Shown piece after piece: positions 23,201 to 42,025 of a stretch of DNA of 64,000 bases. Numbering within the stretch: the first letter of the stretch is position 1; each line of letters begins with the position of its first letter. The notes beneath the pieces were generated by a model. The model had not been told where the DNA came from and did not search any database. It saw only the letters and a program-made list of their open reading frames with translations. The translations under genes were made by a program, and so were the position numbers. The stretch is from an uncultured Sunxiuqinia sp. GTDB lineage: Bacteria > Bacteroidota > Bacteroidia > Bacteroidales > Prolixibacteraceae. The stretch covers positions 1,003,470 to 1,067,469 of the forward strand of contig OZ223309.1 of assembly GCA_965140765.1 (NCBI GenBank). Direction: 5' to 3'.

Positions 23201-23210
23201 ACTTCTTAAA

Positions 23211-24761
23211 ATGAAAAAAACACATATTGCACTATTGATAATTATCCTTGGATTTACAAATGGATGTGTTGAAGATATTTTAGAAAAATCTCCTTTAGAT
23301 GCTTTATCTCCGGATACTTTTTATCAAAATGAGAATGAGGCAAGAATGGGATTGACAGGTGTTTATAATGGACTTACTGAAGAATATACACCTATAAAAT
23401 GGTATCAGTTTGATTTTATGAGTGATGATGGTTTATGTCATCATAGTTGGCAAGGAAATCTTGAATTTGGGGCGTGGTTACATAATTCATCAAGTTGGGC
23501 TGCACAGGATAAATGGATAAGAGCTTACAAAACTATTGTTCGTGCAAATAGTTTCATTGAAAATATTAAAGAATCAAATATTTCTGATGAATTGAAAATT
23601 ACGATGACAGCTGAAGCTAAGTTTATAAGGGCATTTATGTATTCGGATTTAATACAGTTTTATGGGGATGTCCCTTTAGTTTCATCTGTTCAAACACTTG
23701 AGGAGGCAAAAATACCTCGGACACCAAAAAATGAAGTGTTAGAAGGGATAATTGAGGATTTTGATTTTTCTGCACAAAACCTTCCGTTGGAATGGTCTGG
23801 ATCTAGTATTGGCAGAGTAACCAGAGGAGCTGCGTTAGCTTATAAATCAAGGATATTGCTGTATAATGAAAGGTGGGAAGAAGCTGCTAGTACCTTAAAA
23901 GATGTAATGGATTTAGGAATTTATGAATTATATAATGATTATGCGGGGATTTTTAAAGAAGAAAATGAGAACAACATTGAAGTGATCTTTGATATTCAAT
24001 ATATTAAAGATTTGCATATTCAACCATGGCCTTCGTCGGCTATGGCCTTAGGGTCATGGCCAACACCAAGTGTTACAAAAAGTCTTCTTGATTCGTATTA
24101 TATGACAAATGGGTTACCAATTGATCATCCAAATTCGGGATATATCGAGCAAGATCCGTTTATAAATAGAGATCCGCGTATGCATGCTTCTGTTGTTTTA
24201 CCTGGAACACAGAAGGGATATTCAATTTTTATACCTGCATATGATGAAGTACTGTGTGGAGCAAGACCTAGAAAATATGCTGATTTGTATACTGATAATA
24301 TTGGTAATTGTGGAATTAATACAATATTAATGAGATATGCCGATATTTTACTCATGCGTGCTGAGGCGCTTATCGAAGCTGGAGATTTGTCGCAGGAAGT
24401 ATATGATCTTATAAATATGGTAAGGGTTAGGAGTAATATGCCAAAGGTGGAGGATATAGAAGGTGTTGGATTGACACAACAACAACTAAGAAAGGTTGTC
24501 AGACATGAGAGACGGGTTGAGTTTTTCATGGAGGGTTTAAGGTATGTCGACATGTTGAGGTGGAAAGATGAGTCTCTTGTGCACGATGTTTACGGTTTTA
24601 ATAAATCGAGACTTTCAGATCCCTCAAATCCTGAAAACTGGTATTTTGAAGTTATTAGAGTCGCAGAAAGATCATTTGATCCTCGGAAAGGATGGCTATG
24701 GCCAATTCCTTTGAATGAGATTATGAGTAATGAAAATCTGATTCAAAATCCAGGCTTCTAA
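23211..24761 (+). CDS. susD: SusD/RagB-family lipoprotein
   Basis: Lipobox NGC, EAKFIRA, RYADILLMRAEA, RHERRVEF, PIP...QNPGF. Confidence 0.95.
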   Translation: MKKTHIALLIIILGFTNGCVEDILEKSPLDALSPDTFYQNENEARMGLTGVYNGLTEEYTPIKWYQFDFMSDDGLCHHSWQGNLEFGAWLHNSSSWAAQDKWIRAYKTIVRANSFIENIKESNISDELKITMTAEAKFIRAFMYSDLIQFYGDVPLVSSVQTLEEAKIPRTPKNEVLEGIIEDFDFSAQNLPLEWSGSSIGRVTRGAALAYKSRILLYNERWEEAASTLKDVMDLGIYELYNDYAGIFKEENENNIEVIFDIQYIKDLHIQPWPSSAMALGSWPTPSVTKSLLDSYYMTNGLPIDHPNSGYIEQDPFINRDPRMHASVVLPGTQKGYSIFIPAYDEVLCGARPRKYADLYTDNIGNCGINTILMRYADILLMRAEALIEAGDLSQEVYDLINMVRVRSNMPKVEDIEGVGLTQQQLRKVVRHERRVEFFMEGLRYVDMLRWKDESLVHDVYGFNKSRLSDPSNPENWYFEVIRVAERSFDPRKGWLWPIPLNEIMSNENLIQNPGF

Positions 24762-24897: not shown

Positions 24898-27381
24898 ATG
24901 TTAGTACACAAAATAAATATAATGTTTAAATATAGCATTTTGGTTTTAGGGATCATATTCTTTTCTAATGGTTGTAGCCGATATCAGAATATTAATATTG
25001 AAAAGGATATGACGTTTTTTCCTCCTATTAATTCAGAACGAATCCGATTGTTTGATGAAGGATGGCGCTTTTCAAAGATTGCGAATGAAGATGCTATTGA
25101 TCCTGGTTTTTATGACAAATCATGGAGAGTCGTTGATTTGCCGCATGATTGGAGTATTGAAGACTTATCAGAGGGAACTGATATTGTAGGGCCATTTTCT
25201 AAAGAAAAAAGCCAAGGTGGATTAGCAACTGGATTTGTAACAGGTGGAATTGGCTACTATAGGAAAACATTTTCTATTCATGAAAAAGATAAAGAAAAAA
25301 TTTTTACTATATATTTTGACGGGGTCTATATGGAATCAGATGTTTGGTGCAATGGTCATCATTTAGGATTCCATCCTAATGGCTATACTCCATTTTATTA
25401 TGAATTAACTGACTACCTAAATCCTCCCGGGGAAGAAAATGTTTTAGTCGTAAGAGCAAAAAATATAGGTAAAAATAGTCGATGGTATTCTGGTTCAGGT
25501 ATCTATAGGCATGTTTGGCTTAGGGTTACAAAACCTGTTAATATTCCGATATGGGGAGTAGCTATAAATACTCTTAATTTTTCTAAGAATCAAGCTGAAG
25601 TTGGTATTGAGTTTTCAGTTCGTAATCAGGGGAGTGAAGATAGTCCGATTGTAATTCGTCAAGAAATAACTGAGATTGGAGTTCCCTCGGTTTTTGAATT
25701 TGAAGAACATCCCATAAAAGGGAAGGAGTCTTTAAAATATTTCCGAAAATTTTTAATTGATGCCCCTAAACTTTGGACTATGGATAGTCCTAATCTTTAT
25801 ACACTAAGAACAGAAATTATAAAAAATGGTGTTGTTGTTGATACAGAGGAGACAAAATTTGGAATTAGGACATTAGATTTTAGTCCAGAAAAAGGATTTT
25901 TATTGAATGGAGAACCCGTCATATTGAAAGGAGCTTGCATACATCATGATAATGGAATATTAGGATCAGCTAGTTATGATAGGGCTGAACAGCGAAAAAT
26001 TGAAATTTTAAAAAGAAATGGATTCAATGCGATAAGATCAAGTCATAATCCTCCTTCACAACAACTATTGGACGCTTGTGACAGGTTGGGAGTTTTAGTA
26101 ATTGATGAACTATTTGATTGTTGGGAGCATCATAAAATGCCAAATGACTATCATCGATACTTTAAAAATTGGTGGAAGCAAGATATTCAAAGTACACTTT
26201 TACGTGACAGAAACCACCCTTCAATTATTGCATGGAGTTATGGAAACGAAATATATGAAAGAGCAGATTCTTCGGGAATAAGAATAGCTAAACAATTGAT
26301 TTCTTCGATAAAAGAGATTGATGTCACACGTCCTGTTACCCAGGCAATATGTCTTTTTTGGCAGTTTGATAATACCAGCCGTCCTTGGTCTGATAATCAT
26401 GGTGCGTTTGAGTTGATGGACATTCACGGGTATAATTACGAATGGAGGAGATATCAAGAAGATCATCAAAAATTTCCTGAAAGGGTAATTGTTGGAACCG
26501 AAACATTTCCTCTAGAAGTATATGATAATTATCAAATTGCGAGAGATCATCCTTATGTTATTGGTGATTTTGTGTGGACTGGAATGGATTATTTAGGAGA
26601 AGCTGGTCTTGGAAATGCTTCGATAGATTCAACTAATATAACTTATCCTTGGTTTATTAGTAATTGTGGAGATATTGATATTGTTGGTTTCAAAAAACCA
26701 CAATCATATTATCGCGATGTTGTCTGGGGAAATAGTAACCTTGAAGTAGCAGTGGAAAAACCATTGACTATCGGGCATAAATGGGTAATTAGCCGGTGGG
26801 GATGGAGAATTGAATCCCCCTGTTGGAATTGGGATGATATTGGTCAGGAGCTTGATGTTTATGCTTATTCCCAGGCGGAGAAAGTAGAAGTATATCTAAA
26901 TAATAAACTGGTTACGAAACAAATAGCAACAGATACATCAAAGTATGTTTTTCATTTTAAAGTTCCGTATGAACCGGGTGAATTGGTAGTGATAGCTTAC
27001 TCAAAGAACAAAGAGGTAGCACGAAAATTAATCAAAACAACAAAAGAAGTATCTGATATTGCTTTAATTGCAGATAGAAATCCGATAACTGCAAATATTA
27101 ATGACTTATGTTATGTTGAAGTCAGTTTAGTTGACAGTGATGGAAATTTAGTTCGAAATGATGACAGAGTGATTCATTTTGAGATTAAAGGAAGTGCAAA
27201 AATAATTGCTGTAGGGAATGGTAATCCAACTGAAATAAAGAGTTTTCAGTCTGACAGTTGCAAAAGCTTCAACGGAAAATGTGTTGTAGTTCTTCAACCA
27301 TTGGGTAAAACTGGAAAAGTGGAATTGTCTGCATTAGCAAATCATTTACCAGAACAAAAACTAACAATAAACATAAATTGA
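24898..27381 (+). CDS. Glycoside hydrolase family 2 (beta-galactosidase-like)
   Basis: DLPHDWSIE, FDGVYM, RWYSGSGIYR, AIRSSHNPP, WSYGNE, GDFVWTGMDYLGE. Confidence 0.92.
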   Translation: MLVHKINIMFKYSILVLGIIFFSNGCSRYQNINIEKDMTFFPPINSERIRLFDEGWRFSKIANEDAIDPGFYDKSWRVVDLPHDWSIEDLSEGTDIVGPFSKEKSQGGLATGFVTGGIGYYRKTFSIHEKDKEKIFTIYFDGVYMESDVWCNGHHLGFHPNGYTPFYYELTDYLNPPGEENVLVVRAKNIGKNSRWYSGSGIYRHVWLRVTKPVNIPIWGVAINTLNFSKNQAEVGIEFSVRNQGSEDSPIVIRQEITEIGVPSVFEFEEHPIKGKESLKYFRKFLIDAPKLWTMDSPNLYTLRTEIIKNGVVVDTEETKFGIRTLDFSPEKGFLLNGEPVILKGACIHHDNGILGSASYDRAEQRKIEILKRNGFNAIRSSHNPPSQQLLDACDRLGVLVIDELFDCWEHHKMPNDYHRYFKNWWKQDIQSTLLRDRNHPSIIAWSYGNEIYERADSSGIRIAKQLISSIKEIDVTRPVTQAICLFWQFDNTSRPWSDNHGAFELMDIHGYNYEWRRYQEDHQKFPERVIVGTETFPLEVYDNYQIARDHPYVIGDFVWTGMDYLGEAGLGNASIDSTNITYPWFISNCGDIDIVGFKKPQSYYRDVVWGNSNLEVAVEKPLTIGHKWVISRWGWRIESPCWNWDDIGQELDVYAYSQAEKVEVYLNNKLVTKQIATDTSKYVFHFKVPYEPGELVVIAYSKNKEVARKLIKTTKEVSDIALIADRNPITANINDLCYVEVSLVDSDGNLVRNDDRVIHFEIKGSAKIIAVGNGNPTEIKSFQSDSCKSFNGKCVVVLQPLGKTGKVELSALANHLPEQKLTININ

Positions 27382-27400
27382 ATAATAATTTTTAATAAAT

Positions 27401-28435
27401 ATGAATTACAGAAATCTCCTTCTTCTATCTTTTTCCATTTTAGGCTTCTTTGGGGGAACCAAAGCGATGCAGAGATGTATCCAAATTTCTGCCAACACAA
27501 TAGACAGTTCTTTTCTATTAAATGAATATGAGAAAGTGGAAAAAGCGAAATCATTGGATTATGCTTACAAGACATTTGATCAAAAAGAATATGTATACGT
27601 CTTCCCTTATTTTAAAGGAAACGGTGAGGATGGACTCCATTTGGCATATAGTATTGATGGTTATAATTGGAAAGAGTTGAATCAGGGAAAATCAGTACTG
27701 TCTCCAACTATTGGTAGCAAATTACTGCGTGATCCCTCAATTGTAAAAGGGCAAGATGGGAGATATCATATGGTTTATACTTGCGGCTGGTACGATAAGG
27801 GGTTTGGTTATGCAAGTACCAATGATCTTATACATTGGTCTGAACAGAAATATATCCCGGTAATGGAACATGAGCCTGGGGCAAAAAATGTATGGGCTCC
27901 TGAAATTTTTTATGAAAGCAGTAATGAAACTTACTATATTGTATGGTCTACAACGATACCGGGCAAGTTCCCTGAAACTGATGCATCAAGCGAAGACGGG
28001 AATAATCACCGGATGTATTACACTACTACCAAGGATTTTAAGACCTTTTCAGATGCCACCTTGTTTTATGACAAAGGATTTAATGTGATAGATGGTTTTA
28101 TTTTCAAATTTCAAGGGAAATACAATCTCTTTCTCAAAGACGAGACCTTGAACCCGGCACAAAAGAACATTCGCATTGCTACGGCTGATAAGCCAGAAGG
28201 GCCATATACTTATCCATCTAATCCTATTACCGGGGACTATTGGGTAGAAGGGCCGACAGTTTTTGAAAAGGGTGATTCTGTTTTTGTTTATTTTGATAAA
28301 TATAGGGATGGAAAGTATGGGGCAATTAGATCAATAGATTTTGAAAACTGGGAGGATATTTCCAATAAGATTACATTACCTCAAGGTATAAGACACGGTA
28401 GTATTTTTATTGTTCCTATTGAAACTATAAGATGA
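27401..28435 (+). CDS. GH43-like five-bladed beta-propeller glycoside hydrolase
   Basis: LRDPSI, WAPEIFY, VIDGFI, EGPT and RHGS motifs. Confidence 0.8.
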   Translation: MNYRNLLLLSFSILGFFGGTKAMQRCIQISANTIDSSFLLNEYEKVEKAKSLDYAYKTFDQKEYVYVFPYFKGNGEDGLHLAYSIDGYNWKELNQGKSVLSPTIGSKLLRDPSIVKGQDGRYHMVYTCGWYDKGFGYASTNDLIHWSEQKYIPVMEHEPGAKNVWAPEIFYESSNETYYIVWSTTIPGKFPETDASSEDGNNHRMYYTTTKDFKTFSDATLFYDKGFNVIDGFIFKFQGKYNLFLKDETLNPAQKNIRIATADKPEGPYTYPSNPITGDYWVEGPTVFEKGDSVFVYFDKYRDGKYGAIRSIDFENWEDISNKITLPQGIRHGSIFIVPIETIR

Positions 28436-28488
28436 ATGAATTTGATATTTAAATATTCTTTGATAATTAATAATACTAATCTACAGTT

Positions 28489-30048
28489 ATGAGAATAAAT
28501 TACTGGCTTAGAAATATAACAACAATTGTTACAATTTGTTGTTTCTCATTGATTGCGTGTTCAAAAGAAGAGCGTTTTGAAGAAAGTGATCATTTTGCAA
28601 ATACATATTATGTTGATACTGAAAATGGGAATGATAAAAATAGTGGTACAAGCGAGAGTAATGCATGGAAAACGCTTGACAAAGTAAATAGTGTAAAGTA
28701 TGGCGCTGGAGATGTAATAAGCTTCAAGTCAGGACAGATATTTGAAGGAAAATTTGTGCCTAAGGGATCAGGAACTTCAGAAAAACCTATCATTGCTACA
28801 TCTTATGGAGAAGGTAAAAAGCCTATTATTGAAGGTTCTGGTGTGCAACCAGCCACAATTCATCTTTATAATGTAGAGTGTTGGGAATTAGATGGATTAG
28901 AAGTAACAAATTATCATAATACTGTAAATTTAAGAAGTGGGGTATTAATTGAAAATGAAGATAAGGGAATTTTAAATCATATACATTTAAAAGATATGTA
29001 TATACATGATGTAAATGGAAAAAACATTGATAGTAACTGGGGATACGACAGGATAAATGGGGGAGTTATTGTTTATAGTCATGGTACTTCTGTTGAATCT
29101 GCATTTAATGATATTCTAATTAAGGGAAACCATATAGAAAAAGTTGACAGATCTGGTATTTTTATATATTCTACGTGGAGCAGTCGTGATAATATTTCAG
29201 AAGGCTACGGTCGTTGGTTCCCCTCAACAAATGTAATTATTAGAAATAATTATTTAAATGATATAGGTGGTGATGGTATACAAACGGGTGTTACAGATGG
29301 AGCTCTTGTTGAGTATAATGTTGCACATTACTGTAATATGCGTTCAGGAAAGAATAATGTTGCGATTTGGACATGGAATAGTGATAATTCTGTTTTTCAA
29401 TATAATGAAGCTGCATATACGCAAGTTAGAGAAGGAGATGGATGCGGATTTGATATTGATTTTGGCGGTTCAAATAATATAATGCAATATAACTATAGCC
29501 ATGATAATGAGGGAGGATTCATGTTGGTAACGTCATTCGGTAGTTATTCAAATAATGGCGCAATAGTAAGGTATAATATTAGTCAAAACGACAAAGGAAA
29601 GGTGCTTCGCGTTGTCGGTTTAGCAACTCGAAAATGTTATGTTTATAATAATGTAATATACCTTGGATCGAAATCAAATGCTGGTCTTATTTATACGACC
29701 GGTTGGGAAAGAGATCTAGGTGAAGGATATTTCTATAATAATATATTTGTAAATCTAGGTACTGGAGGAAATGAAATCTCATCAGGTACTATTTTTGAAA
29801 ACAATTGTTTTTACTGTCCTAATCTATCAAATTTGCCAGATGATCCCAATATGATTAATTCTGATCCTATGTTTATAAGTTCGAATAGTGGAGGGTCTGG
29901 TATAAACACATTAGAAGGTTATAAATTGAAAAACAATTCTCCTTGTATAAATAAAGGAAAGATAATTGAAAATACAGGAGGCAAGGATTTTTGGGGAAAT
30001 ATAGCACCAATAGATATACCAGATATAGGAGCCTACGAAGAACAATAG
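28489..30048 (+). CDS. Right-handed parallel beta-helix lipoprotein (lyase/hydrolase candidate)
   Basis: Lipobox IAC, YYVD...GND..SG..AWKT, Asn-rich repeats with GGDGI, DGCGFDID, YNYSHDN. Confidence 0.8.
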   Translation: MRINYWLRNITTIVTICCFSLIACSKEERFEESDHFANTYYVDTENGNDKNSGTSESNAWKTLDKVNSVKYGAGDVISFKSGQIFEGKFVPKGSGTSEKPIIATSYGEGKKPIIEGSGVQPATIHLYNVECWELDGLEVTNYHNTVNLRSGVLIENEDKGILNHIHLKDMYIHDVNGKNIDSNWGYDRINGGVIVYSHGTSVESAFNDILIKGNHIEKVDRSGIFIYSTWSSRDNISEGYGRWFPSTNVIIRNNYLNDIGGDGIQTGVTDGALVEYNVAHYCNMRSGKNNVAIWTWNSDNSVFQYNEAAYTQVREGDGCGFDIDFGGSNNIMQYNYSHDNEGGFMLVTSFGSYSNNGAIVRYNISQNDKGKVLRVVGLATRKCYVYNNVIYLGSKSNAGLIYTTGWERDLGEGYFYNNIFVNLGTGGNEISSGTIFENNCFYCPNLSNLPDDPNMINSDPMFISSNSGGSGINTLEGYKLKNNSPCINKGKIIENTGGKDFWGNIAPIDIPDIGAYEEQ

Positions 30049-30099
30049 AACATAAGTTTAATTATTGTCTTAACAGAAAATATAATTTCCTGTGATTAG

Positions 30100-32118
30100 A
30101 TGAAAAAAAGTAGATGTATTATTGTTTTATGTCTTACTGTTATGATTTTAATGGATATAAGTGCTTTAGCTTATAAGCCCTTGGGGGTGAAACATAACAA
30201 AAAAGAATGCTTTAGAATTATCGACAAGGATAAAATTATAATGGTAATTGATAGCTCAGATATGGTTATCGGAAAATTTTTGCCCTGTGATGACGATGTT
30301 CTAGTCGTTACTGATTCATTTGAGTGGAAAGAATGTGATGTAGTTTGCTGGAATCGTACATTTTCTTTGAAACCTGGACAACAGAAACAAAAAGTACGGT
30401 TAACGATGGATTTTCAAGCCTGTTATCAAAGCCAATTCTTGGTGATACCAGGAATTTCCTGGAACGGAAACCACAATGATATTGGAAATGTTTATCGTGG
30501 CTTTTCGTATGGTAACATTCCTTGGTCGTTTGCCTCACATCGTACTTTAATCCCTGGAGGTACTTACTCGGAGGGTGAAATTTATTCTGTTGGTTTGTTT
30601 GCAGATGTTGGAAATCCTAAAATAGGGATTTCTTGTTCATTGATCCCCAATTCTATATCCACAATTCATCGGTTAATCATCCCGGAAGAAGAGATGCCTA
30701 AACGAATCCTCATTCGTGAAAAGGGATTAAGTCAAGGCAGGCAGAATTTTTTAGAACTTGCTCCTGGAGAGAAATATACGGTTACAGCGTGGATTGTAAT
30801 TAATTCATTGGACCAACCCAAAATTGGTTACCATCATTTTATAGATGTTGCCTGGAGAAATTTTTATAGAAAAACTAAAGCATCTCATACAATAGATGAA
30901 CTTTGGAACTTTGGAGTTCACTATGTAAAAAAATATTTGTGGGACAATACACAAAAAATGTTTCATTTGGCGGTTTCATATGAACCAAAAACAAAAGAAT
31001 GGTCGCAGAATGGAGGATTTGCAATTGGATGGTGTGGACGAAATATTGAATTGGCTAATGGCCTGGTTACCGACTACATTAGAAATGGAGATACAACTTC
31101 CCTGAATATTGCCTTGGATTGTATTAATAAATGGGCATCACTCGTAAGTAATAATTCAAAATTGATAGATTTTAAAGGTGACGCAATGAAGCCTTATTAC
31201 GGACTGGCCACAGATGCCAATATGCTTTCAGATGCTGCAACAGGTTTTATGCAAGCTTATTTGAACTTTAAACAATGCAGTATTGATCATCTGGAATTTC
31301 TTGAAATCGGATTGGGTATTTGTAGGAGTGCTCTTGCTATTCAGGATAAAAATGGAAAATTTAACGGGTCAACTTGTCAAAGAGGATCAATAGGAGCATC
31401 TCTGATTCCTCCGTTGCTTACTGCCTATAAAATTAGCCGGAATGACGAATATTTTGTTGGTGCAAAGCTCGCTATGAATTATTATATGCAAGTGTTTTAT
31501 CAGAATGGTTATCTCTGGGGAGGGGCGCTTGACACTCAGAGTGCTGATAAAGAGTCGGTAATTCCTCTCTTGATAGGCAACATACAGTTATTTGAACTTA
31601 CAAAGAATCCCGTTTTTCTAAAACAAGCAGAAGATGTGGCATATTACCTTGCAGCCTGGCAAATAACTCAAACGATACCATATGTTCCCCAATCTTATCT
31701 TGATATAATTAATTATGAATCTTTTGGTGGCACTTCTGTAGCCACAGTCCATATGTGTGCAGATAATTATGCACTATGCACTGTTCCATATTTACTTAGA
31801 TTAGCCAAATATTCAAAGAAGGAAATTTGGAAAGAACGCGCTGTTGCAATTTGGAACTATGCAACACAGGGAATTTCGGATGGAAACTTTACAGATGGTG
31901 ATTTGCCTCCCAGGCCATACGGGAGTGCAGATGAAACATTAAATTACACAGACTGGGGATATGAATTACATCAAGAGGGAATGAATCAAAATAATCCCAG
32001 GGGCTATGGTTCTGGTTGGATGGTTGGATGGATACATGCCATGCGATTTACAATATTAACCAATAAAGAATTACGGGAGTTTATAAAACAATGGTCAGTA
32101 AAACAGATAGAAAATTAA
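30100..32118 (+). CDS. Secreted protein of unknown family, probable (alpha/alpha) toroid carbohydrate-active enzyme
   Basis: Signal peptide, Trp/Tyr-rich helical C-half, GGALDTQSADKES; position in PUL; fold is an inference. Confidence 0.55.
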   Translation: MKKSRCIIVLCLTVMILMDISALAYKPLGVKHNKKECFRIIDKDKIIMVIDSSDMVIGKFLPCDDDVLVVTDSFEWKECDVVCWNRTFSLKPGQQKQKVRLTMDFQACYQSQFLVIPGISWNGNHNDIGNVYRGFSYGNIPWSFASHRTLIPGGTYSEGEIYSVGLFADVGNPKIGISCSLIPNSISTIHRLIIPEEEMPKRILIREKGLSQGRQNFLELAPGEKYTVTAWIVINSLDQPKIGYHHFIDVAWRNFYRKTKASHTIDELWNFGVHYVKKYLWDNTQKMFHLAVSYEPKTKEWSQNGGFAIGWCGRNIELANGLVTDYIRNGDTTSLNIALDCINKWASLVSNNSKLIDFKGDAMKPYYGLATDANMLSDAATGFMQAYLNFKQCSIDHLEFLEIGLGICRSALAIQDKNGKFNGSTCQRGSIGASLIPPLLTAYKISRNDEYFVGAKLAMNYYMQVFYQNGYLWGGALDTQSADKESVIPLLIGNIQLFELTKNPVFLKQAEDVAYYLAAWQITQTIPYVPQSYLDIINYESFGGTSVATVHMCADNYALCTVPYLLRLAKYSKKEIWKERAVAIWNYATQGISDGNFTDGDLPPRPYGSADETLNYTDWGYELHQEGMNQNNPRGYGSGWMVGWIHAMRFTILTNKELREFIKQWSVKQIEN

Positions 32119-32131: not shown

Positions 32132-33211
32132 ATGAAGATTTCAGTTATATTGTTGTTCTTGATATGTTTGTCTTTATCCTGTCAGCATAACAGTTTTAAA
32201 AATAACAGTTACAGGTGGACAGAAAACAAAGTAAATATCTGGTATGATTCCATACCTTGGATTAAAGGATTTAATTACGTGCCCAGTTATGTGGGAAATA
32301 CTACTGAATGGTGGGAAAATCCACTTGACACAAGTATTATCGAAAGAGAACTGGGCTGGGCACAAGATCTTGGTTACACTTCAGCAAGGGTATTTCTTCA
32401 GTATATTGTTTGGAAAAAAGACCCGGAGTCATTTAAAAAGAACTTTTCTCTTTTCCTGAAACTGGCTGCTTCAAAAAACATCTCGGTAATGCCCGTTTTA
32501 TTTGATGATTGTGCTTTTGGAAAGCCCCCCTTGCTCAATCCACATTTGGGAAAACAACGTGAAATTATCCCAGGGATGATTCTTTCAAATTGGACACCTT
32601 CTCCTGGTCAGACACTTGGAACTGACGCCAATGAAATACCACACCTGAAAAATTATGTTGAGGATATTTTAGATACATATGGAGATGATGAAAGAATTAT
32701 CATGTGGGATCTTTTTAATGAACCCATGAATGCTTCAAAGGTGGGAACACCGGCTTTTATAACGAGGTTATTTGAATGGGCAAGGGAAATTAATCCAATA
32801 CAACCTTTATCTATCGCCATCTGGTCAGAAGAGGTAGATGAAACATTAAATAAAGTAATATTGGAGCATTCTGATGTTGTTTCATTTCATCTGTATTCAG
32901 ACCATGTGCATATGTCAGAAAAAATAGCCTCACTTAAAAAATATGAGCGACCGATAATTTGTACTGAATGGATGGCCAGGCCTGTCGGCAGTAACTTTAA
33001 AACAGATTTGCCACTTTTCAAATCCGAGCATGTTGCAGCTTATCAATGGGGATTGGTAAACGGCAAAACACAATGCCAATATCCCTGGTGGAATAAGCCG
33101 GGAGGCGAAGTACATTCTGCCGGTTGGTTCCACGATATTTTATATCCTGATGGAACACCTTACCGGCAGGAGGAGATTGACTTCATCAAAAGTTTTACAG
33201 CATTTGAATGA
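32132..33211 (+). CDS. GH5-like clan A glycoside hydrolase (possibly subfamily GH5_13)
   Basis: Lipobox LSC, WDLFNEP acid/base, FHLY, ICTEW nucleophile, WFHDI. Confidence 0.8.
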   Translation: MKISVILLFLICLSLSCQHNSFKNNSYRWTENKVNIWYDSIPWIKGFNYVPSYVGNTTEWWENPLDTSIIERELGWAQDLGYTSARVFLQYIVWKKDPESFKKNFSLFLKLAASKNISVMPVLFDDCAFGKPPLLNPHLGKQREIIPGMILSNWTPSPGQTLGTDANEIPHLKNYVEDILDTYGDDERIIMWDLFNEPMNASKVGTPAFITRLFEWAREINPIQPLSIAIWSEEVDETLNKVILEHSDVVSFHLYSDHVHMSEKIASLKKYERPIICTEWMARPVGSNFKTDLPLFKSEHVAAYQWGLVNGKTQCQYPWWNKPGGEVHSAGWFHDILYPDGTPYRQEEIDFIKSFTAFE

Positions 33212-33249
33212 TGCTCGATAAGTGATTGTTTTTCTATTTACATGATAAG

Positions 33250-34131
33250 ATGGTTGTTGTGAGTTTTGTCACATTTAAATACATAATAGAGCAAGTAAAC
33301 AACAATTTGCAAAAGTTACAGAGTGATGGAGACGACGAGATTCTAAAAGCAGAAAAAGCAATTGGGATTTGCTCGGTTGCTCTATTGGAATTACGTGAAT
33401 ATGTCTATCATTCGGACTTTAAAAACAAGGAAGAAGAAATCCATTTTTTTAAGGTAATAAAACCTTTTGTGCTCGGGGAATATTTGTACTACTCGAAGCT
33501 TTGGGAGATTTTAATCCGACAATCGGTAACTTCCATTCGAAGAAGGAAAAGACATTTAAGACGCATGATTGCAGAGGCTCAAAATTTTTTTAATGACAAT
33601 TACGAATTTTATCTATACTACCATAGCGGTTCTATCCAACTGGACGACAAGTATTTTACCCGCACGGAAATGAATTGTCCGCTGAATTGCCAGCACTTTA
33701 TCTTTGATCCCTACTTTTCCACCAGCCATGATTATACCCTGGCAGCCATAAAGGCTAATGAAAAAATTGCCGCATATTGCAATATCGAAATCAACCAGTT
33801 AAAAAACAAAGGAAATAACAGGGGGATCAGGACAGATATGTTTTGGTGCCTGGATAAACGGGATTTGATGCAAATTATTTATGGCATTTATTATACAGAT
33901 GCCGTTAATAAGGGAGATATTCATATTAAAGAACTAGTTAAGGGATTTGAATCCTTGTTCAATATCCGTTTATCCGGGTACTATCATACTTTCTACGAAA
34001 TTACCCAATTAAAGAAAGAGCCGCTGGCCTACCTGAATTTAATGAAGGAAACACTGGAAAAACTGCTGGAAGAGTCGGTCGAAAATAAGAGGAGAAAAAG
34101 AAGAAGCAAAAATAATAACATAAAAACCTAA
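33250..34131 (+). CDS. rteC: RteC-domain regulator
   Basis: FFKVIKP N-region and C-terminal W..DK.DL.QIIY...KG...IKEL..GFE.LFNI....YYHTF.EI pattern of RteC proteins; start 33226 (TTG) or 33250 (ATG). Confidence 0.85.
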   Translation: MVVVSFVTFKYIIEQVNNNLQKLQSDGDDEILKAEKAIGICSVALLELREYVYHSDFKNKEEEIHFFKVIKPFVLGEYLYYSKLWEILIRQSVTSIRRRKRHLRRMIAEAQNFFNDNYEFYLYYHSGSIQLDDKYFTRTEMNCPLNCQHFIFDPYFSTSHDYTLAAIKANEKIAAYCNIEINQLKNKGNNRGIRTDMFWCLDKRDLMQIIYGIYYTDAVNKGDIHIKELVKGFESLFNIRLSGYYHTFYEITQLKKEPLAYLNLMKETLEKLLEESVENKRRKRRSKNNNIKT

Positions 34132-34203
34132 TACGGGGTTATCATGAGAAGATAATAGGACTTAAAATATTGATGCGTTAATTTAAATTCTTGTACCGGA
34201 AAA

Positions 34204-34330
34204 TCGTCAAAATTTAAACATCACAGGAATCTAAACAGGACGCCTTCGTTTTAGCGTGGGCTGGGTTTACCTGTGATGTGGGTGTTTGACGATACCTCTG
34301 GTACGGTGTTTCCCGGTTTCACGCTTTTTT
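34204..34330 (+). promoter_or_regulatory. Nested inverted-repeat leader upstream of 34362
   Basis: TCGTCAAA/TTTGACGA (34204-34211, 34285-34292) enclosing ACATCACAGG/CCTGTGATGT (34218-34227, 34270-34279); T-run at about 34324-34330. Confidence 0.55.
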
Positions 34331-34361
34331 TATAACAGAAATTATTACCCATATTTTTTTT

Positions 34362-34634
34362 ATGAAAAAATACCTGACTGACAAGAATATCCAGAATGCC
34401 GATTTAATCGCTGTCTTTCAGCGTTGTCCTTTTGGTAAAACTACTGATGATTGCCTTTTTCTCCCCTATCATCGGTTAAATGATATAGAAGAACAAATCC
34501 GGCAACTAAATGCCCTTGATGAAGATACCCTCCAGCAACTCCGTTCCTTTCACCGTTCGTGTATTATTATAAGAAGAAGTCAAATGGCACCAAACAAGGC
34601 CAATTCAGATGAGTTAGCCGCTAATACTTTCTGA
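34362..34634 (+). CDS. Small hypothetical protein
   Basis: 90 aa, ATG after an A/T-rich leader, RCPF...DC and FHRSC motifs. Confidence 0.65.
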   Translation: MKKYLTDKNIQNADLIAVFQRCPFGKTTDDCLFLPYHRLNDIEEQIRQLNALDEDTLQQLRSFHRSCIIIRRSQMAPNKANSDELAANTF

Positions 34635-34702: not shown

Positions 34703-34729
34703 CAGAAAAAATACCACACTGTGGTATTT
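34703..34729. promoter_or_regulatory. Palindromic operator box, copy 1 (upstream of excisionase operon)
   Basis: CAGAAAAAATACCACACTGTGGTATTT; core AAATACCAC-ACT-GTGGTATTT; near-identical copy at 37094. Confidence 0.75.
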
Positions 34730-34791
34730 TTTATTTTTGGGAAGCGCACTTTTGGCAAAACTCAAATTACATCAATAAAAAGTAAAAAGTT

Positions 34792-35088
34792 ATGCCGACA
34801 GAAATTGTAACAACCGACGATTTGCGAGAATTCAAAATTGAATTGCTCAAAGAAATCAAACAAATGCTGGCTGCCCATCATGGTCAACCGTTCAAAAAAT
34901 GGTTAAAGTCATATGAAGTAAGAAAACTGTTGGGAATCTCACCAGGGACACTACAAAACTTAAGGATAAACGGGACTTTGCCTTTCACTAAAGTTGGTGG
35001 GGTAATTTTTTATGACAGTGAAGACATTCGCAAAATGATGAAAGAAAACCTGGTGCAGAACCGCTTTGAATTCCGCCGTGGCAGATGA
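34792..35088 (+). CDS. xis: Helix-turn-helix excisionase-like protein
   Basis: IVTTDDLREFK, WLKSYEVRKLLGISPGTLQNLRING.LPF.KVGG..FY (HTH_17 type). Confidence 0.85.
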   Translation: MPTEIVTTDDLREFKIELLKEIKQMLAAHHGQPFKKWLKSYEVRKLLGISPGTLQNLRINGTLPFTKVGGVIFYDSEDIRKMMKENLVQNRFEFRRGR

Positions 35089-35564
35089 ATTACATCAGGC
35101 ACCAAACCGGTTTATTTGAACGGTTTGCGGAAGATGAACGAATCAGTCCATTTCATATCAGTCTTTACTTTGCCCTGTTCCAGTTCTGGAACAGGAACCG
35201 TTTTCGAAACCCGTTCCCGGTATCCAGGGAAGAGCTTATGTTCCTTTCCCATATCGGGTCGGTAAACACCTATACAAGATGTATAAAAGAACTACACCAG
35301 TGGGGGTATATAGAATATTTTCCATCATTTAATCCGAATACCGGGAGTAAAGTCACCTGTATCAGTTTTGATAAAGGTAGTGATAAAGCTGGCAGTAAGG
35401 CTGATGATAATGCTGCTGATAAAGCTTTATATAAGAATACAAACTTTACAAACGGGATAAAACAGGCCCATTACCAAAATTTAAAAAATGGAAGAGAAAA
35501 GGAAAAGCGGAACAACAACCCGCTCCATGTCGAAAACGATAAGGACTACTCGGAACCCTTATAG
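35085..35564 (+). CDS. Winged-helix protein, replication-initiator-like
   Basis: HISLYFALFQFWN...REELM..S.IGS..TY..CIKELHQWGYIEY N-domain, then a low-complexity repeat linker; overlaps xis and the ATPase. Confidence 0.65.
   Translation: MNYIRHQTGLFERFAEDERISPFHISLYFALFQFWNRNRFRNPFPVSREELMFLSHIGSVNTYTRCIKELHQWGYIEYFPSFNPNTGSKVTCISFDKGSDKAGSKADDNAADKALYKNTNFTNGIKQAHYQNLKNGREKEKRNNNPLHVENDKDYSEPL
35369..35428 (+). repeat. Five 12-bp imperfect tandem repeats inside the initiator-like gene
   Basis: TGATAAAGGTAG TGATAAAGCTGG CAGTAAGGCTGA TGATAATGCTGC TGATAAAGCTTT. Confidence 0.7.
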
Positions 35565-36213
35565 CGACATAGCAGAACTCAAAAACGGGATGTACCTGTT
35601 TGATTTTTCCCTGTGCCGGAAGTGGATGGAGGATGTGGGAAAACAGCAATACGGAGTACATTTCAGGCTTTACCCGGAAGATTACAGGGTAATTTACAGC
35701 TTGCTGGTTTATGCCATTGAAGATAAAAAAGAGTCAGCAAAGCTTAACCTGGATATTAAGAAGGGGATCCTCCTGGCCGGGCCAATCGGTGCGGGAAAAT
35801 CTACTTTAATGGCGTTAATAAAATACTTTTTACAACCTGGCAAACGATACCAAATCAAAAGCACCCGCGACATTACTTTTGAATTTGAAAATGAAGGATA
35901 CAAAGTGATTAACCGCTATAGTAAAAACCCGTTAAACCTGAGTTACACCAACCCGCTTCCGAATATCTTCTGTTTTGACGATTTGGGTGTTGAACAAACC
36001 CAAAAACATTTTGGCAACGAATGTAATGTTATGGCGGAAATCCTGCTCAGCCGTTACGATTTGTTTATCTCCAAAGGAATACCGACACACTTAACAACTA
36101 ATCTTTCGGCCTCCGAAATCGAAGAGAAATATGGCAACCGTGTCCGTAGTAGAATGAGAGAGATGTTTAACCTGGTTGCTTTTGACAAAAACGCACAGGA
36201 CAAAAGAAGCTGA
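35527..36213 (+). CDS. DnaC/IstB-like P-loop ATPase
   Basis: Walker A GPIGAGKS, Walker B FCFDDLG, HLTTNL...EKYGNRVRSRMREM; start 35488 or 35527. Confidence 0.8.
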   Translation: MSKTIRTTRNPYSDIAELKNGMYLFDFSLCRKWMEDVGKQQYGVHFRLYPEDYRVIYSLLVYAIEDKKESAKLNLDIKKGILLAGPIGAGKSTLMALIKYFLQPGKRYQIKSTRDITFEFENEGYKVINRYSKNPLNLSYTNPLPNIFCFDDLGVEQTQKHFGNECNVMAEILLSRYDLFISKGIPTHLTTNLSASEIEEKYGNRVRSRMREMFNLVAFDKNAQDKRS

Positions 36214-37169: not shown

Positions 37170-37532
37170 ATGTTTGGAATCAACGAAGTCACCTGGGGTG
37201 AATTTACAGCGTTTATCCTGTTTGTTTTGATGGCCTGGTACGGTTTACTGCTAATCCTTGGCTGGATAAAGTCAAAGCAGGGAAACGGACATGAGAGTTA
37301 TGAAGAATACCAGTCCGGCATTACCTCCTGTGAAACCTTACAGCCGATCGTCGTTTCATCACAGGATTATCCATCGGAAATCCTGCCGGTCAACCCTGTT
37401 GAAAATATATCCTTACCGGCTTCACTATATGAAGAAACCGGTTATGACGAAGGTCTGACCATTGACCATTTTGCAGAAAGGAACAGCCCGGTACTGGCTA
37501 AAATGCTTCCTGAAATCCATTATCAACAATAA
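37170..37532 (+). CDS. First gene of tra operon, membrane-anchored hypothetical
   Basis: N-terminal TM helix and acidic tail; directly upstream of traE. Confidence 0.65.
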   Translation: MFGINEVTWGEFTAFILFVLMAWYGLLLILGWIKSKQGNGHESYEEYQSGITSCETLQPIVVSSQDYPSEILPVNPVENISLPASLYEETGYDEGLTIDHFAERNSPVLAKMLPEIHYQQ

Positions 37533-37550
37533 TTACTAAAAATCAAAATC

Positions 37551-37865
37551 ATGAGAAAAAAGATTCAAACGGTTTATCAGAAAAGTGTGGCATTTACTGC
37601 CTTAACAGTCTTTGGGGTTTACAGCAGTTTTGCGCAAAGCTCAGCCGGTATTGACCAGGCTACATCCGAGGTCAGCAGTTACATTGACCCCGTGGCCAAC
37701 CTGATCATTGCCATTGGTGCTGTGGTCGGGCTGATTGGGGGAGTCCGCGTTTACATCAAATGGCAAAGCGGTGACCAGGACACTCAAAAAGCTATTATGG
37801 GCTGGTTTGGCGCCTGCCTGTTTTTGGTTCTTGTGGGAGTTGTAGTACGTGCATTCTTTTCCTAA
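37551..37865 (+). CDS. traE: TraE-like pilin/VirB2 (DUF4134)
   Basis: AGIDQAT..V..Y.DP...AIGAVVGLIGGVRVY.KW..GD.D..K..W.GACLFL. Confidence 0.85.
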   Translation: MRKKIQTVYQKSVAFTALTVFGVYSSFAQSSAGIDQATSEVSSYIDPVANLIIAIGAVVGLIGGVRVYIKWQSGDQDTQKAIMGWFGACLFLVLVGVVVRAFFS

Positions 37866-37876
37866 CAATAGAAAAG

Positions 37877-38170
37877 ATGAAAACTTACACCATCCGGAAA
37901 ATCGATACGAACCTTTACATCAAAGGATTCTCGGGGCAACTGGTCTATTCAGCCCTGTATGGCATTATTGCTGCTTTGCTGCTGTTTGTGCTGCTTTATA
38001 TCCTTATCGGAGCCTTTATTGCGGTTATGGTTTGCGTCCCCCTGTTTTTTGCTTACCTGTACCGCCTGAATAGAATCCAGAAGAAATACGGCCACGCGGG
38101 TTGGGGCAAAAAGAAAATTGCCCGGCAGCTTCCTGAATTTGTCACCATTAAAAAACGGTTTTTGCGATGA
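37877..38170 (+). CDS. traF: TraF-like VirB3 (DUF4133)
   Basis: IKGFSGQ..Y followed by two TM helices and KKYG..G; overlaps traG start. Confidence 0.75.
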   Translation: MKTYTIRKIDTNLYIKGFSGQLVYSALYGIIAALLLFVLLYILIGAFIAVMVCVPLFFAYLYRLNRIQKKYGHAGWGKKKIARQLPEFVTIKKRFLR

Positions 38171-40584
38171 AAGTAAAACCCATAGAAAAGAGCTTGCCCC
38201 TACTAGGCTTTAATGGCAATACCGTAGTTTCGAATAACCTCGATATGGGGTTCGGATTAAGGCTCGAACTGCCCGAGCTGCTATCTAACAGCACGGAACA
38301 GTTGTATAGGTTACATGATACTTTTCAACGGGCGGTAAACCTGTTGCCTGGAAACACCCTGCTCCATAAACAAGATTTCTTTTCTGTGGAACATTTTGAG
38401 GGAAGCAATAAAACTTCAAAAAAGAGGTATCGGGATAGCCTGAATCGGTATTACATGCAACATTTTAACGGGCGATCTTACCTGAAACAGGAATGCTACC
38501 TGTATATCAGTTTGCTAAATGTAGGATTACTAAAAAATTATCTTGGTTCATCCCTGCTGTTTTCCCGCAAACAGAAATTGCAGGAAATAAAAATGAACGG
38601 GAAAATAAACGAGCTGCGTTCCAACCTGGTTTCGGTTTTCGGGCAAAGCGGGATAAAGACAAGGCCGGTTGCACAGGAAGAAGTCATTGGAAATGATGGT
38701 ACAACAGGACTGATTGAGCGGTATTTAACCCTTAATTTCAGGGGAGGTCAGCCATTGCTGGGAGGGATAGACTTCAGGGACAGGCTCCGGGTGATGGACC
38801 GCTTTGTGGAAATCCTTAGTTTAAGCGATTTTTCGCATTTGCCAACAGAAGTAAGGCCAACAAGCGGCCATCCCCAAACCAGCCTCCCAGTTTCCCTGGT
38901 GTACCCGGTGACCTACCACCTGCCGTTTTCACATATAACTAACCAGTTTATCTATGTCCCGACGCAACAGAAAGTAAAAGCCGGATTGGAAAGCAACCAT
39001 AAGAAGATCTACAGCCTGTCTAAATTTTCTTCTGAGAATAAGGTCAATGCAGGGCTGATTGAAGATTTTCTGGATACGGTACAGGTTTCAGGGGAGAAAA
39101 TCGTCAAAACCCATTTTAATGTAATGCTTTTTGACGAATCCATTTCTGAACTGAAAAAATACAAAAGCGAAACCGCCTCGGCCTTTTCGCTAATGAATTG
39201 CTTTCCTTACCAGCACTCCTTTGATTTGCCCCTGTTGTTTTTTGCCTGTGTGCCTTTTTCAACCCAATTACCGGAAACGGAACTGTTTACCACCCAAGTT
39301 CCGCAAGCCTGTTGCCTGACCAATTTTGAAGGAGAAGTGCAAAATTCTAAGTCTAATTTCTTTATCAACCTTTCCAACCGGCAGGAAGGTTGCCCGGTAA
39401 AAATTGATCTTTCAGATGAGCCGATGCAAAAGCACCTGATCCATAACCGGAACAAAATCATTATCGGCGGTTCCGGATCCGGAAAATCCTTTTTTACCAA
39501 TCATCTGTTGAGGCAATATGCAGAGAGCGGAAACTGTCATATCGTTTTACTTGACGTTGGCCGTAGCTATGAAATCCTGACCCGCTATCTGGATGAGAAG
39601 CTAAAAGATAAGGGCGGGGCAAAGCTGATCGAATTTTCCGAGACGAATCCTATCTCATTTAACCCCTTTGTAGTAGACGGGGAGCCGGATATCGAAAAAA
39701 AACAAACCATCCTGTCGGTCATTTATACCATTTACAAAGAGAACCTGACAGAAATGGAAAAGGATGTGATTGCCTTTTCAGTGAACCGCTACTTTGAAAC
39801 CAACATTAAAAAGAAACGATGCTTTAACAGCTATTATGAGTTCTGCAAAGAAATTATTCCCCGCTTGGCCAAAGACGAATCCATAGAGTTTAACAGCAAC
39901 GAATTTTTCTTTATCCTCAGTAAATACTATAAAGGTGGTGAATATGATTACCTGCTGAACAAGCCCATGAACACCGATGAGTTTTTTGCCTGTCCGTTTC
40001 TTGTTTTTGAACTGGATTCGATAAAAGACCACCCGGTAATTTTTCCTGTGGCCACACTGATCATTATGGATATTTTCCTGCAAAAGATGCGCAGGCTGAA
40101 GCGGGTCAGAAAGGTAGTCTGTCTGGAAGAAGCCTGGAAAGCCATTGCGACCCCTCAAATGGCAGGGTTTATCAAGTATTTTTTCAAGACCATACGCAAA
40201 TTCTTTGGTGAGGCTATGGTAGTTACCCAGGAGGTGGACGATGTAATCTCATCACCCATAATCAGGGATGCCATTATCAACAATGCCGATACAAGGATAT
40301 TGCTGGACATGAACAAATTCAAAAACAAGTTTGATGAAATCAGCCGCTTCCTGGGCCTGAATGAATTCCAGAAGGAACAAATCCTGTCCATCAACAAAAA
40401 TCTTCCATCTGACCGGAAGTTCAAGGAAGTATTTATCTCCCTGGGGGAATACTCCCGTGTTTTTGCCCTGGAAGTCAGTAAGCCTGAGTATTTCTGCTAC
40501 ACCACCGAACAAAAGGAAAAAGAAGAAATCCTTGGCCGGCTGAACAAGGAAAAATCCGTACTGGAAGTACTTAGAACCATTTAA
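38167..40584 (+). CDS. traG: TraG VirB4-family conjugative ATPase
   Basis: LHKQDFF, NRNKIIIGGSGSGKSFFTN, LEEAWKAI, RKFFGEAMVVTQE. Confidence 0.93.
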   Translation: MKVKPIEKSLPLLGFNGNTVVSNNLDMGFGLRLELPELLSNSTEQLYRLHDTFQRAVNLLPGNTLLHKQDFFSVEHFEGSNKTSKKRYRDSLNRYYMQHFNGRSYLKQECYLYISLLNVGLLKNYLGSSLLFSRKQKLQEIKMNGKINELRSNLVSVFGQSGIKTRPVAQEEVIGNDGTTGLIERYLTLNFRGGQPLLGGIDFRDRLRVMDRFVEILSLSDFSHLPTEVRPTSGHPQTSLPVSLVYPVTYHLPFSHITNQFIYVPTQQKVKAGLESNHKKIYSLSKFSSENKVNAGLIEDFLDTVQVSGEKIVKTHFNVMLFDESISELKKYKSETASAFSLMNCFPYQHSFDLPLLFFACVPFSTQLPETELFTTQVPQACCLTNFEGEVQNSKSNFFINLSNRQEGCPVKIDLSDEPMQKHLIHNRNKIIIGGSGSGKSFFTNHLLRQYAESGNCHIVLLDVGRSYEILTRYLDEKLKDKGGAKLIEFSETNPISFNPFVVDGEPDIEKKQTILSVIYTIYKENLTEMEKDVIAFSVNRYFETNIKKKRCFNSYYEFCKEIIPRLAKDESIEFNSNEFFFILSKYYKGGEYDYLLNKPMNTDEFFACPFLVFELDSIKDHPVIFPVATLIIMDIFLQKMRRLKRVRKVVCLEEAWKAIATPQMAGFIKYFFKTIRKFFGEAMVVTQEVDDVISSPIIRDAIINNADTRILLDMNKFKNKFDEISRFLGLNEFQKEQILSINKNLPSDRKFKEVFISLGEYSRVFALEVSKPEYFCYTTEQKEKEEILGRLNKEKSVLEVLRTI

Positions 40585-40634
40585 CCGAATGGTATTCTAT
40601 GTACTAAATACTCACTACTAATAATCTTATAAAA

Positions 40635-41285
40635 ATGAAAACAACAATTAAAATTCTGGTGATCCTCCTGATACTCTCGGGAACCTGCCTGACGCAATTA
40701 AAAGCCCAAACACCTGTAACGGATGTGGGGGCAGGAATCCAGCGCGAAGCCCTCTGGGTGGAAGAAGAAGGGATCCTTTCAAAAATCAACCTGTACAATG
40801 TCCTGATCAAAGCACTGAACGGCGATATCAAGGGCCTTACAGGTGAAATCCTGGGCATTGATGAGAAAATGCTGGAAAGCCTGGAGAAAGTTTCCAACCT
40901 GATCAAGGACTACAAACGGGTGCAGGAAACCCGCGAAATCCTTGGAAGGGTGATCGATATTTATACTGAAAAAGTTCCCTTGTTGGTACAGGACGAAAAT
41001 TTTACTGCTCAGCAGGCTGTAGCTATTGTCCAATCCTTTGACCTGGTACTGGAAGACAGCAAACAAATGGTCAACACGGTTCTGAATACCATCCTAGAAG
41101 ACAACCTGTTTATGATGGACGACAAACAACGCTATGACACGATTAACGAAATTTACCTGGGGGTAAAGCAGCACTACGGCACCATTTGCTACCTGTACAA
41201 CAAAATTATGTATGCATCCTACCTGAAAAGCCACGAATCGGGCGACCTGGAAAGTTTTGCTATGTATTACAGCCTCTATAAATAA
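40635..41285 (+). CDS. Exported conjugation protein, TraI-like
   Basis: Signal peptide, AQTPVTD, LEKVS..IKDY..V, M.DKQRY..I pattern; position after traG. Confidence 0.65.
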   Translation: MKTTIKILVILLILSGTCLTQLKAQTPVTDVGAGIQREALWVEEEGILSKINLYNVLIKALNGDIKGLTGEILGIDEKMLESLEKVSNLIKDYKRVQETREILGRVIDIYTEKVPLLVQDENFTAQQAVAIVQSFDLVLEDSKQMVNTVLNTILEDNLFMMDDKQRYDTINEIYLGVKQHYGTICYLYNKIMYASYLKSHESGDLESFAMYYSLYK

Positions 41286-41310
41286 CGGGAAAATGAAAAA
41301 GTCAAATATC

Positions 41311-42015
41311 ATGAAACGAATATTGATAATAGCAGCTTCAATTATCCTGATTAGTTCCGTACATACAAAAGCCCAGTTGCTTGAGATCAAGCCCTGGCAC
41401 GGAAGCTATCCTGAAATGGGAGACAGCTATCCGCTGACGTTTATTGCTTTTAAAGGTTGGCTGATACCCGTTCCTCACGTTTTTGTACGTACCTGGCCCA
41501 CCCATTACTACATTGAAGCGGACGCCATGCCGGTAACCGATGCCACGGAAATCAGCGGGACTACTGTAACTGGTTTATTGCGGATTGTTGCAAAAATGCT
41601 GGAGCGCCATCAGATGGAAGGACGGCATAATGAAACGGTTCAGATTAGAGATAACACTGACCTCCAAAAACAGATCGGGGAAAAAATATTCAACGCAAGG
41701 ACAGACCAGTTGGAAGACCTGTTCGGTCTGGCGCAACGCTTTATCGGACTATACAGCAAGATAGACAGGATCGGTGATTTGCCAAATTCTACAGAAGTAA
41801 AGGAGATTTTCGAGGAAGAAGCCGACTGCCAGTTGATGCATTTTCTGATGGTCAACCTGTTGGAGACCGGCCATGGTGAAAAGCTCGAAGCCTATTCTGA
41901 AATCAATACTACCCTTAATAAACTGCAGGGGGAAGTGGACTATACATATTCCAAAATCCGCTATTTCAGCAATTATAATGCAGAGATTACCAGCTACTCA
42001 TTTTTAACCCGATAA
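41311..42015 (+). CDS. Exported tra-region protein
   Basis: Signal peptide MKRILIIAASIILISSVHTKAQ; between traI-like gene and traJ. Confidence 0.65.
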   Translation: MKRILIIAASIILISSVHTKAQLLEIKPWHGSYPEMGDSYPLTFIAFKGWLIPVPHVFVRTWPTHYYIEADAMPVTDATEISGTTVTGLLRIVAKMLERHQMEGRHNETVQIRDNTDLQKQIGEKIFNARTDQLEDLFGLAQRFIGLYSKIDRIGDLPNSTEVKEIFEEEADCQLMHFLMVNLLETGHGEKLEAYSEINTTLNKLQGEVDYTYSKIRYFSNYNAEITSYSFLTR

Positions 42016-42025
42016 AGAGAAAACA

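Follow-up and report, generated by a model that had tools for sequence, protein, structure and literature searches.

A CTnDOT-type element with rteC at the distal end of a polysaccharide utilization locus: possible coupling of glycan use to excision

The window analyzed here is a 64,000-nt stretch of contig OZ223309.1 from an uncultured Sunxiuqinia sp. (Prolixibacteraceae). Judged by its integrase, RteC, Xis, tra and mob genes, it holds an integrative and conjugative element (ICE) of the CTnDOT kind. The cargo is a polysaccharide utilization locus (PUL), and rteC, the predicted activator of the excision operon, directly follows the last PUL gene on the same strand. We propose that rteC is the distal gene of the PUL transcription unit and that read-through from the cargo would provide at least part of its transcription. 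The proposal builds on direct observation of the gene identities, their spacing, the lack of terminators, the recurrence of the arrangement across the family and the position of a homology boundary. Co-transcription of rteC with the PUL appears probable, whereas a biologically meaningful glycan-dependent rise in excision appears doubtful. We assign the whole chain, from PUL read-through into rteC via xis activation to excision and transfer, a probability of ∼45%.

The open reading frame (ORF) at 33226-34131 matched the Pfam RteC profile with a score of 180.5 bits (cut-off 25.3; E value 4.9e-53), covering profile positions 1-217 of 219. Three in-frame start codons are available, TTG at 33226, ATG at 33250 and GTG at 33259, located 14, 38 and 47 nt past the stop codon of the gene for the last PUL enzyme, a lipoprotein resembling glycoside hydrolase (GH) family 5. 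Since the N-termini of the homologues align with 33250 and 33259, the real gap is 38-47 nt; the initial annotation had placed the rteC start 14-38 bp after that stop codon on the same strand. As it had also reported, the gap is free of terminator-like hairpins, both in a hairpin scan and in a scan for a hairpin plus U-tract, and the latter detected terminator-like structures directly after rteC. The intrinsic terminator scan found no hairpin plus U-tract in any of the nine gaps (10-136 nt) between susC and rteC. By its strand, its short gap and the lack of a terminator, rteC qualifies as an operon member, and the architecture first described, a CTnDOT-type ICE with PUL cargo adjoining rteC at operon-like spacing, is confirmed.

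The window was compared with 11 related elements (L029-L039), giving 12 ICEs of one RteC clade. This clade belongs to the Prolixibacteraceae (Draconibacterium, Mariniphaga, Maribellus, and Mangrovibacterium), with 45-87% identity, and the other RteC proteins sampled from the order share no more than 34% identity with the window RteC. In all 12 elements, rteC is immediately preceded by five or more co-oriented carbohydrate-catabolic genes, a set that varies from one element to the next. The cargo comprises uronate- and lactate-utilization genes in L029 and L036; GFO/IDH oxidoreductases, a PfkB kinase and a mannitol dehydrogenase in L030; a sulfatase, GH43 and GH2 in L031; GH127, GH3 and GH29 in L035; and GH20, GH29, GH95 and GH35 in L039. 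Cargo with an extracytoplasmic function (ECF) sigma factor, FecR and a TonB receptor is present in three of the 12 (the window, L032 and L033). Because it recurs in 12 of 12 related elements, the arrangement is no chance neighbourhood.

Downstream of rteC, a 90-aa ORF is present in all relatives, a xis gene in most, and tra genes in every intact element on a contig of sufficient length. Across a broader sampling of the order, the upstream neighbour of rteC is co-oriented in 21 of 23 cases; among these 23 neighbours are five integrase genes (no cargo) and three AraC regulators, and none is RteB-like. By gene order, the interval between int and rteC is a cargo slot, at the place where CTnDOT keeps tetQ-rteA-rteB, and in this clade it is given to sugar catabolism. 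The family-wide pattern makes the coupling that we infer from gene order more credible.

In blastn comparisons with the window, seven elements whose cargo is unrelated align only from positions 33275-33337 onward, within rteC. Before the rteC start codon, the window has no sequence in common with relatives that carry other cargo. The region 3′ of rteC is strongly conserved, and includes a 150-nt structured element, the 90-aa ORF (orf90) and, ahead of xis, the palindrome ACCACAnTGTGGTAT with a −7-like box (CAnTTTTG). Since homology begins inside rteC, the backbone should lack an rteC promoter, and whatever transcribes rteC should come with the cargo. The backbone thus seems to carry the xis promoter/operator yet to supply no promoter for rteC. 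At nine loci (the window and eight relatives), the cargo-rteC gaps (38-263 nt) contain no terminator-like hairpin, except for one weak match, in L033, at the rteC start.

In the proposed cascade, a glycan signal would pass from the STN domain of SusC via FecR to the ECF sigma factor and would raise transcription from susC onward. Transcription from an ECF-sigma-dependent susC promoter would then carry through the nine terminator-free gaps into rteC. RteC would bind the palindrome upstream of xis and a second copy upstream of tra, leading to excision and transfer as in CTnDOT, and RteC dose, hence excision frequency, would track induction of the PUL by its glycan. The initial annotation had inferred that the ICE may excise and transfer when its own polysaccharide is present, an interpretation that our analysis supports in part. 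The last steps, from RteC to excision, draw on two published systems. Expression of rteC from a heterologous promoter suffices to activate the CTnDOT excision operon (PMC3809561), and rteC overexpression leads to excision or loss of tRNA-Lys ICEs from Bacteroides (bioRxiv 10.1101/2024.11.15.621889). This half of the cascade is plausible here, as a conserved palindrome and a −7-like box precede xis. The window contains just two copies of the palindrome ACCACAnTGTGGTAT, at 34703-34729, before xis, and at 37094-37120, before tra; in the window, L029 and L030, the copy before xis ends 18 nt ahead of the −7-like box. The palindrome is a candidate RteC binding site. Together with its U-run, the copy before xis is scored as a terminator-like hairpin as well.

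Several observations weigh against the proposed coupling, and we consider them together with two alternatives. The first places a dedicated rteC promoter in the spacer or in the 3′ part of the GH5-like gene, answering a signal unrelated to the PUL; adjacency would then reflect the cargo slot and a recombination anchor. The initial annotation had noted that the gap lacks a canonical TAnnTTTG box. No exact box lies on the + strand between 32171 and 33698, and none was found within 150 nt upstream of rteC at any of the nine loci. The box was calibrated on the own genome by scoring exact matches within 150 nt upstream of genes that follow divergent or co-oriented neighbours. An exact box precedes 37% of the genes with a divergent neighbour, for which a promoter is obligatory, and 8.4% of the genes located ≤60 nt after a co-oriented neighbour. 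Because 63% of the promoter-obligatory genes also lack the exact box, its absence favours an operon-internal position by a likelihood ratio of only ∼1.45, and is weak evidence for such a position of rteC. Stronger, yet still generic, arguments for co-transcription are the shortness of the gap and the missing terminator. A scan for sigma-70-type promoters performed no better than with shuffled sequences, and an attempt to define an ECF-dependent motif upstream of susC yielded none.

The same alternative draws on the way the junction is inherited. A block that runs from the 3′ part of the GH5-like gene through the 38-nt spacer into rteC (first ∼220 nt) recurs at 97-100% identity, with differing flanks, in L032 and four public runs (contigs from two other organisms and a salt-marsh metagenome). 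Inherited as a unit, it could carry a promoter; its joint inheritance also counts in favour of co-transcription. Short ORFs upstream of the intact rteC encode remnants of a second RteC N-terminus in L038 (∼9700-9960) and L039 (∼9700-9850). On sequence grounds, these are scars of cargo exchange through recombination within rteC, and because the rteC of L032 is a mosaic as well, rteC acts as a recombination anchor. Crossovers inside rteC alone could account for both the homology boundary and the inherited orientation. Since rteC is such an anchor, the twelve contexts do not count as 12 independent cargo insertions. The gaps are AT-rich and 127-263 nt long in four of the nine close relatives, roomy enough for a promoter, and a separate promoter, dependent on RteB, serves rteC of CTnDOT (PMC3809561). 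On the other hand, relatives with other cargo share no sequence upstream of rteC although their xis promoter is conserved, five of the nine close relatives have gaps of 38-75 nt with scant room for a promoter, and an RteB-type activator is absent. A separate rteC promoter is possible, but we consider it the less probable arrangement.

The second alternative accepts co-transcription, but only as a source of basal rteC expression. Gating would lie with RteC activity (its N-terminal domain serving as a sensor), with the structured RNA plus orf90, or with attenuation past susD, and excision would not respond to the glycan. In five more distant ICEs, int itself immediately precedes rteC; there, read-through would make rteC constitutive, so other layers of control must exist and rteC transcription is not the sole switch. 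Between rteC and xis, 12 of 12 elements carry the structured RNA with its terminator-like end and the 90-aa ORF. A perfect 13-bp inverted repeat (TTGACATATTAGG...CCTAATATGTCAA), without a U-tract, lies directly after susD at 24765-24808. It may form an mRNA-stabilizing or attenuating hairpin that sets the ratio of SusCD to enzymes, and it may attenuate transcription further downstream. In conjugative transposons (CTns) carrying B12 transporters, the sole published cargo-linked test in Bacteroides CTns, excision was the same across cargo-relevant conditions (PMC8759732). However, rteC overexpression sufficed for excision or loss in the two Bacteroides systems cited above, and the RNA family also occurs in genomes without RteC, hence it is no dedicated ICE switch. 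We consider purely basal expression unlikely, and somewhat less likely than a separate promoter. The public runs that match related elements are DNA-type assemblies, and none is an RNA-seq run with the window sequence.

If read-through from the PUL into rteC is nevertheless taken as the working model, it can be extended to the family. The master excision activator would then be promoterless within the ICE backbone and wired by read-through to any cargo placed in the int-rteC slot, forming a substrate-triggered, modular "cargo-sensing" circuit that is rewired with each cargo swap through recombination inside rteC. Every PUL or sugar pathway would thereby spread by conjugation specifically while its substrate is consumed. 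We put this generalization forward tentatively, and judge it rather unlikely on the comparisons made here.

CTnDOT (tetQ-rteA-rteB, rteC, xis2c-xis2d-orf3-exc, then tra/mob) and the window ICE have a common order: int, cargo, rteC, helix-turn-helix (HTH) excision operon, tra and mob. In both, RteC belongs to PF09357 and the cargo is upstream of, and co-oriented with, rteC. CTnDOT cargo supplies the inducing signal, tetracycline, and an operator-like inverted repeat precedes its xis promoter (PMC3809561), for which the window has a candidate. Unlike CTnDOT, the window ICE has no tetQ and no sigma-54 activator of the RteB type, and its cargo is an ECF-sigma-regulated PUL. The initial annotation had stated that no rteA/rteB pair is present in the window. 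No RteB-type sigma-54 activator was found in or near the element, and the nearest of 11 in the genome is >170 kb away, which upholds the statement for RteB; for RteA it stands without a search aimed at RteA-type histidine kinases. The link proposed here is plain transcriptional read-through, in contrast with activation by RteB. The palindrome is also found before tra in the window, whereas tra of CTnDOT is activated by Xis2c/Xis2d.

Cargo substrates induce transfer in other mobile elements. On the Ti plasmid of Agrobacterium, traR, the master activator of conjugation, is distal in opine-catabolism operons (occ or arc), so that the substrate of the cargo induces transfer. That system is a plasmid of Alphaproteobacteria with a LuxR-type regulator that needs a quorum signal, and it has no excision step; co-transcription of traR is experimentally proven, whereas that of rteC in the window ICE is predicted from gene order. 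ICEclc of Pseudomonas is a catabolic ICE with transfer competence raised after growth on its cargo substrate, 3-chlorobenzoate. It belongs to an unrelated family with unrelated regulators (MfsR/TciR/BisCD), and its link runs through stationary phase and bistability, not operon read-through.

PULs determine which glycans Bacteroidota eat, and many of them travel on ICEs. Gut Bacteroides ICEs carry PULs for porphyran, carrageenan and agarose (bioRxiv 10.1101/2020.06.09.142968), and ICEs in tRNA-Lys with rteC/araC/merR have been described in Bacteroides (bioRxiv 10.1101/2024.11.15.621889). These ICEs resemble the window element in being CTnDOT-like, in PUL carriage, in tRNA-Lys integration and in rteC-driven excision. 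The papers on them describe no link between PUL transcription and rteC, and the window elements differ in coming from marine Prolixibacteraceae with a distinct RteC clade. We found no paper linking PUL transcription to rteC. A transfer signal provided by the cargo (CTnDOT) and PULs on ICEs are thus already known; PUL transcription feeding rteC would be new, if true.

Triggers of ICEs beyond the tetracycline-induced CTnDOT model are largely obscure. If the coupling holds, transfer would peak on particles of the PUL's own substrate, where donors and recipients crowd and the trait is selected, which would account for the rapid spread of PULs in marine sediments and guts. Such an ICE would be inducible by glycan addition or by ECF sigma overexpression, and, given the family-wide pattern, cultured strains such as Mariniphaga anaerophila DSM 26910 and Maribellus comscasis lend themselves to a test.

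The features of the window are collected in Table 1.

Table 1. Features of the tRNA-Lys ICE and its PUL cargo, in window coordinates.
Feature	Coordinates	Strand	Evidence or remark
tRNA-Lys(UUU), ICE integration site (attL side)	16177..16252	+	ARAGORN
CTnDOT-type tyrosine integrase	16442..17740	+	Arm-DNA-bind_5, Phage_int_SAM_5 and Phage_integrase domains
ECF sigma factor (17972-18559) and FecR anti-sigma factor (18623-19669)	17972..19669	+	Pfam; TIGR02985, 5.7e-46
SusC-like TonB receptor with N-terminal STN signalling domain (19802-23200) and SusD (23211-24761)	19802..24761	+	Pfam
PUL enzymes: GH2 (24898-27381), GH43 (27401-28435), GH136-like (28489-30048), unassigned 672-aa protein (30100-32118)	24898..32118	+	Pfam
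GH5-like (clan GH-A) lipoprotein, 359 aa, last PUL enzyme	32132..33211	+	Homologues, motifs
38-nt spacer without hairpin or exact promoter box, identical in L032	33212..33249	+	
rteC, predicted activator of the excision operon	33250..34131	+	PF09357, 4.9e-53
Conserved structured RNA (∼150 nt), widespread Bacteroidales family	34172..34333	+	Fold, covariance model
Conserved 90-aa ORF (orf90), no assigned function	34362..34634	+	Present in all relatives
Palindrome ACCACAnTGTGGTAT (candidate RteC operator), then conserved CAnTTTTG −7-like box, upstream of xis	34703..34754	+	Kept in L029 and L030
Excision-type operon: HTH_17 Xis-like gene (34792-35088), 159-aa ORF, DnaC-like AAA ATPase	34792..36213	+	Pfam, NCBIfam
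tra genes (DUF4134, DUF4133, TraG ATPase, TraM, TraN/DUF4138), coupling protein, MobC, relaxase	37170..50082	+	Profile matches

Every gene from int through the relaxase gene is on the + strand. The assignment to the CTnDOT type is based on the N-terminus of the integrase, Bacteroidetes-type tra genes with coupling protein and relaxase, the HTH xis gene downstream of rteC and the flanking direct repeats; the RteA/RteB two-component system upstream of rteC, also expected of this type, is lacking as judged by sigma-54 activators of the RteB type. Copies (17 nt) of the tRNA-Lys 3′ end are present past the window at equivalent positions 68233 and 77620 (∼52 and ∼61 kb downstream), and are candidate attR sites. 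The element, integrated in tRNA-Lys and ∼52 kb in length, looks intact. The two downstream repeats suggest an ICE and a second island of ∼9 kb in tandem. No intact Exc topoisomerase gene was seen in the xis operon of the window ICE. Two more RteC fragments, both broken by stop codons, are present in the same genome at C3:1294208-1294402 (L002) and C3:508941-509054 (L003), as leftovers of other decayed ICEs.

The initial annotation had described the cargo as a PUL under ECF-sigma/FecR/SusC trans-envelope signalling. This is borne out by the presence, on one strand, of the ECF sigma factor, FecR, SusC with its STN domain, SusD and carbohydrate-active enzymes. A motif scan found an exact TAATTTTG box at 17945, ahead of the ECF sigma gene. 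The GH136-like protein has lacto-N-biosidase relatives in the PDB at 2.8e-52. The GH5-like protein has no sequence relative in the PDB, and no NCBIfam model matched it. The "GH5-like" label is fair because the homologues carry PF00150 or "cellulase family" names, its own weak Pfam matches are to the GH2 TIM barrel and GH10, within clan GH-A, and its sequence contains NEP and TEW motifs as well as a lipoprotein signal peptide. Taken together, the GH2, GH43, GH136-like and GH5-like enzymes hint at a glycan with galactose or arabinose as the substrate.

Variant elements in L032 and in public runs X1-X3, otherwise ∼97% identical, lack 28200-32258, which corresponds to the GH136-like and 672-aa genes. 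In these variants, GH43 is followed after 405 nt by the GH5-like gene, and by comparison the window carries a 4-kb insertion with a breakpoint 126 nt inside the GH5-like gene. The window PUL is therefore an expanded form of the GH43/GH5-like/rteC arrangement. In run X1, compared over window positions 27000-39000, the exact window sequence is present at ∼7x and the ∼97% identical variant element at ∼300-630x. The GH43/GH5-like/rteC depth in X1 is ∼2x that of the xis-tra part, suggesting two copies, or two elements with a common GH43/GH5-like/rteC block, in that organism.

The structured RNA after rteC probably marks the 3′ boundary of the rteC transcription unit. Its fold comprises three stacked helices and an apical hairpin, with CACGC and a U-tract at the 3′ end (minimum free energy −51.5 kcal/mol, z −4.3). 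Copies in L029-L039 are located ∼100-150 nt after rteC, and further copies occur in L041-L069. A covariance model built from nine ICE copies detected the RNA in 87 of the 301 genomes of the order, spread over 67 of 209 genera. Single genomes carry up to nine or more copies, and of 10 RNA-bearing genomes checked, nine lack RteC. Among 45 distinct RNA sequences, 29 of the 36 base pairs change on both sides. Paired cells amount to 95.9%, compared with 33-41% when the partners are slid, in an alignment fitted to the model, which favours structure. Outside ICEs, the RNA lies 30-90 nt upstream of genes for small lipoproteins or secreted proteins.

No family in Rfam 15 was matched by this RNA. Identity with FopS was rejected because FopS, set apart here by its description, is 65-70 nt long and built differently (PMC11697453). 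The readings as an oversized terminator or as a leader specific to ICEs were rejected as well, given the presence of the RNA in 87 of 301 genomes, mostly without RteC. From its conservation and distribution, the RNA is a candidate for a new, widespread Bacteroidales family of cis-regulatory RNAs (leaders) or small RNAs. Its invariant GCGUG might pair with either of two CACGC motifs, as a pseudoknot or an alternative pairing in the case of the 3′ motif, in columns that never vary.

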